Of a stretch of 64,000 bases of DNA, positions 31,758 to 34,776 are shown piece by piece. The notes beneath the pieces are model-generated. The model was not told the DNA's origin, ran no database searches, and saw only the letters and a program-made list of their open reading frames with translations. This DNA is from Pseudomonadota bacterium (GTDB lineage Bacteria > Pseudomonadota > Alphaproteobacteria > SHVP01), in contig JAQBYN010000017.1 in NCBI GenBank assembly GCA_027622715.1, forward strand, positions 577-64,576, written 5' to 3'. Every line of letters begins with the position of its first letter. Position 1 is the first letter of the stretch. A program made the translations under genes and the position numbers.

Positions 31758-32737
31758 CCCAATTTGTCACCCTGGACGAAATTCGCGCCGCGCATGACAG
31801 CCTGCCCGGGATCATTCGCCGCACACCGATTGTGCCGCTGGCGCGGGACTCTGGCGAAGTGGGCCGCGAATCGCTGTTCCTCAAGCTGGAGAATCTTCAA
31901 GTCACCGGCGCCTACAAGGTGCGCGCGGCGTTCAACATGATCCGCGTGTTGGGGCCGCAAAATCTCAAACGCGGGTTGGTCCTCACTTCTTCAGGGAACT
32001 TCGCGCAGGCGTTCGCGTTGGCGGGGCGGCTCTATGATGTGCCGATCGTCGTGGTGATGATGGACCGCACCAGCCCGTTCAAGGTCGAGGCGGCACGCGG
32101 CTATGGCGCTGAAGTGGTGTTTTGCGGCGATGATGCCTTGGCCCGCCAACCGACCGCCGAACGGGTCGCGACCGAACGCGGCATGACTGTCATCGACACC
32201 TGGGAGGAACGCCCCATCCCGGCCGGCCACGGCAGCATCGGCCTGGAATTGCTCGAACAAATGCCCGACGTCGCATGCGTGTTGGCACCCGTGAGCAGCA
32301 GCGGCCTCATTGCCGGCGTCGCGACGGCGATCAAAGAAACCGCGCCGCACGTCAAGGTAATCGGCGTCCAGCCTGAGCGCGCCAACGCGGCCTATGTCTC
32401 GCGTGAGCGCGGCGTGCCCACGACAATCGACTACTGGGACAGCATGGCGGATGGGTTGTCGGCCGTGCGACCCGGCGCGTTTCCGTTCGCGCATGTGCAA
32501 CGCTACGTCGACGATATCGTTCTGATTGGCGAAGCCGACATCGCTGCCGCGTTTCGCACCTTGCTTTATCGCGGCAAGGTCTTGGGCGAGCCTGCCGGGG
32601 TGGTAGCGGCAGCTGGCTTTCTGTCGGGCCGCGTTCCTTCCGACCAAAAGACCGTTGCGCTAGTCACCGGTGGGAACATTGCCCCAGACCTGGTTCGCCA
32701 TTTGTTGTCCGACCCGAGCGAGCACTCTCCACAATAA
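31754..32737 (+). CDS. PLP-dependent threonine/serine dehydratase or serine racemase-like protein
   Basis: Motifs LKLENLQ.TG.YK.R, SSGN.AQA, IGVQPE, ADGL and TGGN. ATGA overlap with pncA. Confidence 0.9.
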   Translation: MTQFVTLDEIRAAHDSLPGIIRRTPIVPLARDSGEVGRESLFLKLENLQVTGAYKVRAAFNMIRVLGPQNLKRGLVLTSSGNFAQAFALAGRLYDVPIVVVMMDRTSPFKVEAARGYGAEVVFCGDDALARQPTAERVATERGMTVIDTWEERPIPAGHGSIGLELLEQMPDVACVLAPVSSSGLIAGVATAIKETAPHVKVIGVQPERANAAYVSRERGVPTTIDYWDSMADGLSAVRPGAFPFAHVQRYVDDIVLIGEADIAAAFRTLLYRGKVLGEPAGVVAAAGFLSGRVPSDQKTVALVTGGNIAPDLVRHLLSDPSEHSPQ

Positions 32738-32769
32738 GAAAGGACCGCCCAGTTGCCTGCGGCGGTCCT
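32733..32769 (-). terminator. Intrinsic terminator, U-tract on the minus strand
   Basis: AGGACCGCC/GGCGGTCCT 9-bp stem; the minus strand continues TTCTTATT. Confidence 0.75.
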
Positions 32770-32889
32770 AATCTCGGATGTGGCGAATGACTGCGTTAGG
32801 GGGGAGTCATTCGGCCATCCAACCTAGCGAATATCCATCTCTCGCAACACAGGGGCCGGGAGGCAGCGGGAGCGGATGTTCAGCTTAGG
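32733..32889 (-). ncRNA. Candidate 3'UTR-derived sRNA with two C-rich-loop hairpins plus terminator
   Basis: Hairpin 1 (32823-32889) has loop UGCCUCCCGGCCCC. Hairpin 2 (32776-32820) has loop CCCCCCUAACGC. The terminator follows. Folded by eye. Confidence 0.5.
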
Positions 32890-32997
32890 CTATTTCTTCC
32901 CGAAGCCGGGTTTCGCCGCAGGTTTCGCAGAAACGCCAGGTTTTGCGGCGGGCTTCGCAGACGACGCGGGCTTCGCGCCGGGTTTCTTCGTGTCCAT
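32890..32997 (-). CDS. 35-aa Lys/Pro/Ala-rich repeat micropeptide MDTKKPGAKPASSAKPAAKPGVSAKPAAKPGFGKK
   Basis: RBS GGAGAG 8 nt before ATG; stop TAG. The peptide repeat is preserved while codons vary synonymously (AAG CCC/AAA CCT/AAA CCC). Below the ORF-track size cutoff. Confidence 0.75.
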   Translation of the reverse strand: MDTKKPGAKPASSAKPAAKPGVSAKPAAKPGFGKK

Positions 32998-33090
32998 GTG
33001 AGGTGCTCTCCAATAAACCAGCATGTGCTGGCAGAAGTATTTATAGATCACGCCCTACCATCGGACAATCAAATGTTTTAAGTACTTAAT

Positions 33091-33105
33091 ATCGATTTTT
33101 ACGAT
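33091..33105. promoter_or_regulatory. LysR-type T-N11-A recognition site
   Basis: ATCG-ATTTTTA-CGAT palindrome immediately upstream of the LysR gene in an AT-rich divergent spacer. Confidence 0.7.
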
Positions 33106-33113
33106 GGTATGTC

Positions 33114-34013
33114 ATGGACGACACACAGGCGCGCACCTTCCTCGAAATCATCGAGGCGGGCACATTTGTGGCGGCGGCTGAACGGTTAAACGTCACGCAA
33201 TCCACCGTCAGCGCACGGATAAAGGAACTTGAACTGACGCTTGGGCGACCGCTTTTTCTTCGCGGTCGTGCGGGGGCGACGCTCACGCCCGCCGGGCACC
33301 GGCTGCGCCGTCACGCCACCGCGATCCTGCGCGTGTGGCAACAAGCAAAGCAGGAGGTCGCGCTGCCGGCGGCATATCGCGCGAGCTTGCGCATCGGCGG
33401 CCAACTCAGTTTGTGGGACCGCGTCCTGGTACGTTGGTTGGGCCGCCTCCGCGCGGAGATGCCGGATGTCGCGTTGCAGGGCGAGGTAACCCAGCCCGAA
33501 GGCCTCATGCGGCAAATGACCGAGGGCTTTCTAGACGTCGCCATTCTTTACTCGCCGGAATCTCGGTCGGGGCTCATCGTCGAGCCCCTTCTCGAAGAGA
33601 CGCTGGAGCTGGTGAGCAGCGCGGCGAATTACGCCGACTCGCCCAACGTTCCTTATGTCTTTGTCGACTGGGGACCGGAGTTCCTGAATAGCCATCAACA
33701 AATCTTTGCTGACACCGAAACCCCTGGGCTTCACGTGAGCGTCGGAGTCATTGGCCTGCAATACATTTTGGAGTTTGGGGGGGCCGGCTATTTTCCGACC
33801 CGCGTGGTTCAACCGCTTATCGAGCGCGGCAGACTCTTTCGCGTCGAGGGCACGCCGTCTTTCGCGCGGCCGGCGTTCGCGGTGTACCGCAGCGACGACA
33901 AGAGTGCCGAGCTTGCTGCTGCGCTGGTTTGTTTGCGGACTCTTATCGCCGAAGAACCGGCGATCCACCCCGACGCGGTCAGCGCTTCTTCTTCGCCGCC
34001 GCTGCCTTCCTGA
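33114..34013 (+). CDS. LysR family transcriptional regulator, HdfR-like
   Basis: HTH F..AAERLNVTQSTVSARI..LE..LG..LF.R, plus W.QA.QEV and YV.VDWGPEF as in HdfR. Confidence 0.93.
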   Translation: MDDTQARTFLEIIEAGTFVAAAERLNVTQSTVSARIKELELTLGRPLFLRGRAGATLTPAGHRLRRHATAILRVWQQAKQEVALPAAYRASLRIGGQLSLWDRVLVRWLGRLRAEMPDVALQGEVTQPEGLMRQMTEGFLDVAILYSPESRSGLIVEPLLEETLELVSSAANYADSPNVPYVFVDWGPEFLNSHQQIFADTETPGLHVSVGVIGLQYILEFGGAGYFPTRVVQPLIERGRLFRVEGTPSFARPAFAVYRSDDKSAELAAALVCLRTLIAEEPAIHPDAVSASSSPPLPS

Positions 34014-34776
34014 ACTGGGGTTTGCGCTTGGCGCGAAAGGCCCGCTCGCCTTCCCGACCCTCGGGCGAATCGTAGTACAGACGCACCGCGATGTTGCCGA
34101 GATTGGAGAGGCCGCGAATCGATTCGGTCTCAGCGTTGAACGCACGCTTGCCCAGGGCGATCGCGGTCGGGCTCATTTGCAAGATTTCGTCGCACCAGCG
34201 CCGCACTTCGCCATCAAGCCGCGCGTCGGGCACGACGGCGTTCACCAGCCCCATCTCCATGGCCTCGTGCGCTGTGTAGCGGCGACACAAGAACCAGATT
34301 TCTTTAGCCTTCTTTTGACCGACATGGCGCGCCAACAAGTTGGTGCCGAACCCGGGATCGACCGAGCCCATTTTTGGACCGGCTTGGCCGAATACCGCGC
34401 TCTCGCCGGCAACCGTCAGGTCGCAAATCGTCGCCAGCACGTTACCGCCGCCGATGCACCAGCCGCGCACTTTGGCGATCACCGGCTTGGGCGCATCGCG
34501 CATGATCGAGTGCAGTTCCTCAATCGGTAAACCAATGGTGCCGCGACCATCGTAGACGCCGTCATGCGCGCCCTGGTCGCCGCCGGAGGAGAACGCTTTC
34601 TTTCCCGCGCCCGTCAGGACGATCACACCGATATCGTCGTTCCACGCGGCTTTATTGAAGGCGTCGACAAGTTCTTCGCAGGTTTGCCCGCGAAACGCAT
34701 TGTGCACTTCGGGACGGTTGATGGTGATTGTCGCGACGCTATCGCGCACCGTGTACTTGATGTCTTTGAACGCCAC
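33979..34776 (-). CDS. badI: 2-ketocyclohexanecarboxyl-CoA hydrolase (crotonase family)
   Basis: NAFRG.TC.EL, GGDQ..HDG.YDGRGT.GLP.EELH..RD.PKPVIA, GPKMGSVDPG.GT and LYYD..E..EG match BadI as I recall it. Confidence 0.85.
   Translation of the reverse strand: MAFKDIKYTVRDSVATITINRPEVHNAFRGQTCEELVDAFNKAAWNDDIGVIVLTGAGKKAFSSGGDQGAHDGVYDGRGTIGLPIEELHSIMRDAPKPVIAKVRGWCIGGGNVLATICDLTVAGESAVFGQAGPKMGSVDPGFGTNLLARHVGQKKAKEIWFLCRRYTAHEAMEMGLVNAVVPDARLDGEVRRWCDEILQMSPTAIALGKRAFNAETESIRGLSNLGNIAVRLYYDSPEGREGERAFRAKRKPQFRKAAAAKKKR

Follow-up and report, generated by a model that had tools for sequence, protein, structure and literature searches.

In Pseudomonas, PhaF and AlgP carry disordered, histone H1-like tails of Lys-Pro-Ala repeats. 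One report describes the KPAA repeats of PhaF as binding RNA upstream of the Shine-Dalgarno (SD) sequence and activating translation (PMC12818456), and another describes DNA binding by KPAA-repeat peptides in vitro and the association of AlgP with polyphosphate granules (PMC9239181). In the Rhizobiales VtlR/LsrB circuits, VtlR is reported to directly activate the small RNAs (sRNAs) AbcR and VrsA as well as the gene of a small hypothetical protein (PMC7486931). In Rhodobacter sphaeroides, the 3' untranslated region (3'UTR) of ccaF1 is reportedly processed into the CcsR sRNAs, and CcaF1 itself binds RNA (PMC8034643). In Escherichia coli, hdfR is divergent from maoP, and MaoP (112 amino acids [aa]) matches PF04219 (DUF413) at 2.4e-38. 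We compared with these systems a locus in a 64,000-nucleotide (nt) stretch of an alphaproteobacterial genome (GCA_027622715.1, contig JAQBYN010000017.1), here called the window, to whose positions all coordinates refer. In it, a lysR gene on the plus strand is divergent from a minus-strand unit of about 300 nt that comprises an ATCG-N7-CGAT box, a promoter, a 5' stem-loop, an SD sequence, an open reading frame (ORF) for a 35-aa peptide, two further stem-loops and a terminator. This anatomy, including the -10 element and the ribosome-binding site, had been laid out in an earlier note made from the letters alone, and every part of it is in the sequence. The description that fits the module best is of a dedicated LysR regulator whose divergent cargo is a free-standing micropeptide of the KPAA type.

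The window peptide shares its Lys-Pro-Ala repeat chemistry with PhaF and AlgP, having six tandem KPxx units, of which two are perfect KPAA. However, it consists of the repeat only, with no attached folded N-terminal domain, whereas PhaF has 22 units and AlgP about 25 to 30, each on a folded domain. Unlike PhaF and AlgP, it has a dedicated LysR regulator, and shared descent with them is not demonstrable for low-complexity sequence. The likeness to the VtlR/LsrB circuits is a LysR-type regulator with short transcripts as targets, which for the window is a prediction from sequence. In contrast to those circuits, the window regulator is nearest to HdfR, the small protein lacks DUF1127, there is no AbcR or other Rfam match, and the target is divergent, with a site that appears to have no counterpart elsewhere in the genome. 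Like ccaF1-CcsR, the locus has a small protein gene with structured elements in its 3'UTR; however, CcaF1 is a 71-aa DUF1127 protein, whereas the window peptide has no domain, there is no CcsR/cuckoo match, and conservation of the 3'UTR does not extend beyond the genus. The hdfR-maoP pair resembles the window in the nearest named regulator family and in its divergent small gene. The window partner is nevertheless an unrelated 35-aa peptide with no DUF413 match, and the E. coli hdfR-maoP intergenic region has no ATCG-N7-CGAT box. The earlier note had proposed an analogous but non-homologous module. The literature on KPAA small proteins, lysine-rich bacterial small proteins and alphaproteobacterial LysR regulators with divergent small genes, covered mostly below the level of full texts, was not found to describe this cassette.

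The regulator has both domains of the LysR-type family in Pfam, PF00126 (HTH_1; 2.3e-19, residues 5 to 62) and PF03466 (LysR_substrate; 2.1e-16, residues 89 to 272). Its top NCBIfam model is HdfR (NF002946), and its best PDB sequence match is 6wn5, the HdfR effector domain. However, it scores 139.1 bits against that model, below the equivalog cut-off of 240, and shares only 32% identity over 269 aa with HdfR of E. coli K-12. By these matches HdfR is the nearest named family and not an ortholog, so the name HdfR-like, which the earlier note had used, is appropriate in the former sense only. VtlR/LsrB is absent from the 25 best NCBIfam matches of the regulator, and no VtlR reference sequence was compared.

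The LysR/small-peptide pairing is probably a real small regulatory module, because several distantly related groups of Alphaproteobacteria have it as well. Within the genus, the DNA of the unit is present in three of the seven other genomes, and a fifth copy lies on a metagenome contig (locus L099). The order is represented by only 17 genomes in the collection. Four of them gave strong matches to a profile of the peptide (E <= 8e-12), and two others, G011 and G014, gave weak matches over 20-residue stretches (E 0.002 to 0.005). The genomes with the LysR (E <= 1e-30) are precisely the four with strong peptide matches, and neither gene was found in the other 13.

For more distant relatives, we sampled loci around LysR homologs: the best 80 of 231 in reference genomes and the best 80 of 208 in metagenomes, with identities of 41 to 98%. 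The 400 nt divergent from each LysR start were scanned for ORFs with an SD sequence and ATG, 18 to 60 aa, a net charge of at least +6, at least four Lys and no more than 15% hydrophobic residues; 10 metagenome loci with less than 300 nt upstream were dropped. Small basic ORFs of this kind were found at 10 of the 80 genome loci and at 5 of the 70 retained metagenome loci. The opposite strand of the same zone, used as a control, gave none (0/80 and 0/70). The zone thus held 15 such ORFs in 59,737 nt, compared with 5 in 1,289,847 nt elsewhere in those loci, an approximately 65-fold enrichment that overstates the case because kin are not independent. The whole genome of the window gave seven matches in the same strict scan. 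One of these, on contig C33 (minus strand, start near 734), is an SD-preceded basic ORF of 46 aa (MAKGQQRSNREAKKPKK...) with, as far as checked, no LysR of this type adjacent. Two further loci, L071 and L147, have such an ORF with a weaker SD sequence.

Examples of the peptides encoded beside distant LysR orthologs are MAAKKPAAKPAAKPAAKPAAKPAKKK, MAIGKKPAPKKTPAGSGSKPAAMPSKNAGRK, MKPSKPSAPAKPQGKPSAAKPAAATGSKPASPKK and MKSTSKPKPASKPESKDKPPVIAVKPGHNSGR. Locus L082, from Oceanibacterium hippocampi CECT 7691, combines the box and core with a 5' hairpin and an ORF of 34 aa, and the L078-type locus is that of Sulfitobacter. The peptide-bearing lineages differ in nucleotide sequence and share amino-acid composition, a terminal Lys/Arg pair and position. 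In a FastTree phylogeny of 161 LysR sequences, in which L071 was set as peptide-type by hand and L147 was labelled as without the ORF, the peptide-type loci form at least eight lineages inside one clade of 115 rows. The tree requires eight label changes, four of them forced by well-supported branches. This pattern fits an ancient association followed by frequent loss or replacement, or else gain on several occasions. The Loktanella-type loci L085 and L170, sisters of the Sulfitobacter peptide-type loci, have kept the promoter core and a 5' hairpin, while the SD sequence and basic ORF are decayed, as if the peptide had been lost recently.

The operator-promoter is the most conserved part of the cassette. 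The strict ATCG-N7-CGAT box is conserved in the four aligned genus-level loci, in L099 and beside distant LysR orthologs, and it occurs within 200 nt of lysR at 44 of the 151 loci with enough upstream DNA. The bare box carries little weight alone and was rejected as evidence, because the 3.15-Mb genome contains 306 copies (about 39 are expected from composition). In contrast, the composite of the box and the conserved core downstream of it occurs once in that genome, at 24 of the 151 loci and at 15 of the 17 peptide-type loci. Distant loci have the core consensus, AAAYATTCGTTTGTC, at a constant distance from the box, and the layout shared by orthologs from several families is ATATCG-N7-CGATATTA, 12 to 14 nt, AAAYATTCGTTTGTC and a -10-like TAnAnn. 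Classic LysR-regulated promoters have their recognition site near -65 and their activation site at the -35. The shared layout follows this arrangement: its second element extends over the -35 and resembles a degenerate half-box. With a 17-nt spacer between the -35-like TTGTCC and the -10-like TATAAA, transcription would start at about 33033, some 7 nt past the -10, and the RNA would be about 300 nt long. From this start the box, to which LysR presumably binds, would be centred at about -65, in keeping with the earlier note's placement of it at the usual LysR activator position. The TATAAA named in that note at 33045-40 is present in the window, although it is not kept letter for letter; the relatives read TACATT, TACAAA or TACATA, and only the pattern TAYAWW is conserved. 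A sigma-70-like pair reported by a promoter scan, ATGACA-16-GATATT (33115-33088), was rejected as the main promoter, as it is not kept in relatives.

The 35-codon ORF is very likely a coding gene, since it is kept in all copies, changes length in frame and varies mostly at third positions. The SD sequence, ATG and stop codon are retained in 5/5 genus-level copies, and TGGAGA around the SD is conserved in the four aligned genus-level loci and L099. Four of the peptides are 35 aa long, and the fifth, of 31 aa, results from in-frame indels of 12 and 6 nt. In the four ungapped genus copies, variable columns are distributed 7/4/18 over the three codon positions; of the 21 variable codon columns, 11 show synonymous change only. 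An independent lineage shows the same tendency, with 16 synonymous and 3 non-synonymous codon differences between L053 and L147, and 10 and 0 between L053 and L054. An in-frame upstream extension of the ORF, giving a 53-aa reading, is not conserved.

A purely noncoding transcript, with the open frame a by-product of the repeated RNA motif GCGAARCCYG, was also considered. Short nucleotide repeats do make up the ORF, the complementary strand is open in this register too, the exact peptide is not in the protein collection, and related LysR loci can have ORF-less transcripts (see below). However, an SD sequence conserved at the right spacing, start and stop codons present in every copy, indels only in multiples of three and a strong synonymous excess in two independent lineages all argue against it, as do peptides of the same composition, terminal Lys/Arg pair and position encoded by divergent nucleotide sequences. 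We hold this possibility to be very improbable. The antisense frame, rich in G, F, A and P, was rejected, having no conserved start or SD sequence and opposing the promoter and terminator. Leader-peptide attenuation was likewise rejected, because no downstream gene precedes the terminator on the minus strand.

The peptide contains nine Lys and one aspartate, for a net charge of +8. It has no hydrophobic stretch, with at most 15% hydrophobic residues, and thus lacks the membrane-spanning segment of type I toxin-like peptides. Neither the 35-aa nor the 53-aa reading belongs to a Pfam or NCBIfam family, DUF1127 included, and an exact look-up of four of the peptides, including that of the window, found none in the protein collection. 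The module is one that standard family libraries miss; the earlier note had expected standard annotation to miss it. A search of the ESM Atlas with the peptide gave a best score of 0.78 and no lead. Against 1.84 billion representatives, the peptide profile had only seven matches: six were long repeat proteins, KPAA-type ones among them, and the seventh was the L099 gene read from a start further upstream, at 56 aa. Between the window and L099, the LysR proteins are 98% identical, with 91% identity at the four-fold sites, whereas within 32890-33113 the identity is only 81% in the intergenic region and 86% in the small ORF. All 15 ORF differences lie in codons 13 to 32, which suggests repeat-driven turnover, relaxed constraint or recombination.

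Two parts of the predicted RNA are structured. The 5' stem (5 to 7 bp, just upstream of the SD sequence) is invariant in 5/5 genus copies. Most other peptide lineages have hairpins of unrelated sequence at the same place (L048 and L120 have none), and the folding z-scores are modest (-0.8 to -4.6). The 5' hairpin probably works at the RNA level, for instance in 5' protection, rather than as an operator, because its sequence differs while the LysR box stays the same. Downstream of the ORF, the three 3'UTR stem-loops, namely SL1, SL2 and the terminator, were predicted alike in all four sequences folded singly with RNAfold. In the five-sequence alignment, 82.5% of cells pair, compared with 33 to 48% when the partners are slid. 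Compensatory changes occur at 12 of 37 pairs, compared with 0 to 4 when slid, and 0/500 shuffles reach the observed values; these figures come from only five related sequences, and the structure was derived from the same alignment. The conserved, compensating fold points to selection on the 3'UTR as a structure within the genus. The last stem-loop has the G+C-rich hairpin and U-run of an intrinsic terminator, shows compensatory changes in relatives and lies 5 nt past the stop codon of a convergent pyridoxal phosphate (PLP)-enzyme gene. A simple terminator scan with loops capped at 8 nt did not list it, whereas RNAfold predicted it in 4/4 sequences folded.

The conservation of this fold raises the possibility of a dual-function RNA, in which the peptide is made and the C-rich loops of the 3'UTR also pair with G-rich ribosome-binding sites of targets, the region from SL1 to the terminator being either released or acting in place. 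The SL2 loop motif CCCCUNACGC is invariant in 5/5 copies while its stem varies with compensation, and the 3'UTR identity of the window to L002 and L003 (0.55 to 0.59) exceeds that at the LysR four-fold sites (0.41 to 0.42). However, it is barely above them for L004 and not above them for the close pair. There are precedents in the CcsR sRNAs from the ccaF1 3'UTR (PMC8034643) and in the sRNAs and small protein gene activated by VtlR (PMC7486931). Against a dual function, CCUCCC in SL1 is present in 4/5 genus copies and reads CUUCCG in the closest relative. The 3'UTR motifs were found only in the genus-level copies among the scanned loci (4/4 of those scanned), and the 3'UTRs of other peptide lineages vary in length and content, from a bare terminator to several hairpins. 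An Rfam cmscan of 32000-34500 at E <= 10 gave only two irrelevant sub-threshold matches and no AbcR or CcsR/cuckoo, and a scan of 19 related loci at the gathering level gave none. No paralog of the 3'UTR was found in the genome, and a simple search for sites complementary to the SL2 loop returned 57 scattered matches with no pattern and was uninformative. An anti-SD sRNA activity of the 3'UTR is possible, but we regard the dual-function RNA as doubtful overall. Comparison supports the earlier note's interpretation in part.

A reading that combines both products, in which an HdfR-like sensor switches on a peptide acting in trans together with, in this genus, a 3'UTR-derived RNA with C-rich seed loops, seems unlikely to us. 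In it, the peptide may be a minimal RNA-binding activator of translation or an organizer of the nucleoid or of polyphosphate. If it is true, one signal would release protein and RNA effectors from a single 300-nt transcript.

The coordinates of the cassette and of loci with other cargo are given in Table 1. The 3' ends of lysR and of a convergent enoyl-CoA hydratase-family gene (33979-34776, minus strand) share 35 nt (33979-34013). The best NCBIfam model for the latter gene is BadI, 2-ketocyclohexanecarboxyl-CoA hydrolase (409 bits; cut-off, 467.6).

Table 1. Features of the LysR/micropeptide cassette (window positions) and predicted elements at related loci (positions in each locus)
Feature	Position	Strand	Basis or detail
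LysR-type transcriptional regulator, HdfR-like, 299 aa	33114-34013	+	Pfam, NCBIfam, identity and PDB matches
ATCG-N7-CGAT palindrome (contains T-N11-A), presumed LysR site	33091-33105	.	ATCG 33105-33102, CGAT 33094-33091, centre 33098
Conserved core TAAAACATTTGATTGTCCGATG, possible activation half-site	33059-33080	-	Alignment; holds -35-like TTGTCC (33068-33063)
-10-like TATAAA, putative promoter	33040-33045	-	Read from sequence
5'-terminal stem-loop GCCAGCA-CA-TGCTGG, then U-run	33017-33032	-	RNAfold
SD sequence GGAGAG	33006-33011	-	Read from sequence; 8 nt before ATG
35-aa ORF MDTKKPGAKPASSAKPAAKPGVSAKPAAKPGFGKK, six KPxx units	32890-32997	-	ORF list; ATG 32997, stop 32892-32890
3'UTR stem-loop 1 (SL1)	32823-32889	-	RNAfold, compensatory pairs; apical CCUCCC at 32863-32858
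3'UTR stem-loop 2 (SL2)	32776-32820	-	RNAfold, compensatory pairs; loop CCCCCCUAACGC at 32804-32793
Intrinsic terminator	32733-32769	-	RNAfold; G+C-rich stem 32769-32742, then UUUCUUAUU (T-run 32741-32733)
ORF-less transcripts	L055:2260-2418, L122:1270-1425, L143:266-406, L151:94-234	minus of each locus	Predicted
Magnetospirillum-type examples	L023:1922-2272, L025:1925-2275		

Orthologous LysR genes do not all face a basic peptide. Among the loci with the composite motif, L062 and L079 (a Muproteobacteria metagenome-assembled genome [MAG] and a Thiogranum MAG) face hydrophobic peptides of 27 to 30 aa, and L052 faces a 137-aa protein. At four Kordiimonas loci (L068, L081, L091 and L149), the strict box is accompanied by a variant core and faces a conserved 70-aa acidic protein for which no convincing Pfam match was found. 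A relationship of this protein to MaoP was considered and rejected, there being no DUF413 match. In one LysR clade (L055, L122, L143 and L151), the box-plus-core promoter faces an ORF-less transcript of about 110 to 130 nt followed by a terminator. These transcripts carry an invariant C-rich block, CCCAGCCCCUU(C/U).A.GGUUC, have no Rfam match and look like an undescribed LysR-driven sRNA. Since they lie behind the same type of promoter, the regulator family plausibly drives small RNAs, which counts in favor of the dual-function RNA discussed above. The family thus seems to swap its divergent cargo among basic peptide, hydrophobic peptide, acidic protein and ORF-less RNA.

In the Magnetospirillum/Telmatospirillum clade (L021-L047 type), the gene just upstream of lysR encodes a Ribosomal_S30AE protein (hibernation factor). 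The box is about 100 nt from the lysR start, with a highly conserved spacer between them, and there is no divergent small ORF. In L025, the first 220 nt or so upstream of lysR contain two to three tandem near-identical hairpins (GGGGGG..CCCCCC then AUUUU), which sit between the box and the hibernation-factor gene. Known ribosome-associated small proteins are small and very basic, as is the window peptide. This likeness and the Ribosomal_S30AE neighborhood would suit a stress-induced or stationary-phase factor associated with the ribosome, rather than a binder of nucleoid, RNA or polyphosphate. However, the peptide is labile in sequence and of low complexity, unlike ribosomal components, and the hibernation-factor neighborhood occurs only where the peptide is absent. 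We therefore consider a ribosome-associated factor very improbable.

Our preferred reading, which we hold to be reasonably probable, is a self-contained cassette in which LysR activates an mRNA for a free-standing polycationic peptide of the KPAA type. LysR would bind the box near -65 and also a second, weaker site that overlaps the divergent promoter's -35; with a co-inducer, it would activate a monocistronic RNA of about 300 nt. From the same box it would also repress lysR itself, which we propose because the box is only 8 nt from the lysR start codon. The RNA would be headed by the 5' stem-loop in a protective role, and translation would be driven by a good ribosome-binding site. The predicted product is an intrinsically disordered polycationic peptide of 35 residues with KP(A/G)x repeats, in effect a small stand-alone version of the KPAA-repeat tails found on AlgP, PhaF and histone H1. 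It would most likely act by binding polyanions (RNA, DNA or polyphosphate), although for a peptide of six units this is only the most economical guess by analogy. The structured 3'UTR would at least stabilize or terminate the message and may also yield a processed RNA.

Several points weigh against this reading, besides the nonindependence of the scanned kin. The antisense frame is also open and shares wobble positions with the ORF, so that the codon signature does not fix the strand; the strand assignment follows from the orientation of the SD sequence, ATG, promoter and terminator. The peptide is of low complexity and changes fast. Between the genomes with 98% identical LysR proteins, 28 of 35 residues are identical, with the differences concentrated in the C-terminal half. 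Because of this low complexity, homology of the peptides between lineages is not provable, and convergence may account for their likeness. Only about one-tenth of the sampled LysR orthologs have such an ORF; elsewhere the cargo is a small hydrophobic peptide, the 70-aa acidic protein or an ORF-less transcript, or there is none. The -65 position depends on a start site deduced from a -35/-10 match that the consensus scan did not pick, and the polyanion-binding role is argued solely by analogy with much longer repeat domains. The sequencing runs listed as containing the stretch (15) are all DNA metagenomes, none of them RNA. On the other side stand the recurrence of ORF, box and promoter core beside LysR orthologs in several families and the co-occurrence of LysR and peptide in the order, which support the view that the module is conserved.

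Small proteins of fewer than 50 residues are routinely missed, and few have a clear regulatory handle. The handles here are a dedicated regulator with an operator-promoter motif that is unique in the genome and recurrence beside orthologous regulators. This recurrence spans several alphaproteobacterial families, some of them with cultured members (Oceanibacterium hippocampi and Sulfitobacter). A natural repeat-only peptide of 25 to 40 residues would be a minimal test of how few KPAA repeats suffice and what they bind. If the regulator family does swap its cargo, it would also lend itself to the study of how short transcripts shift in evolution between coding and noncoding roles.

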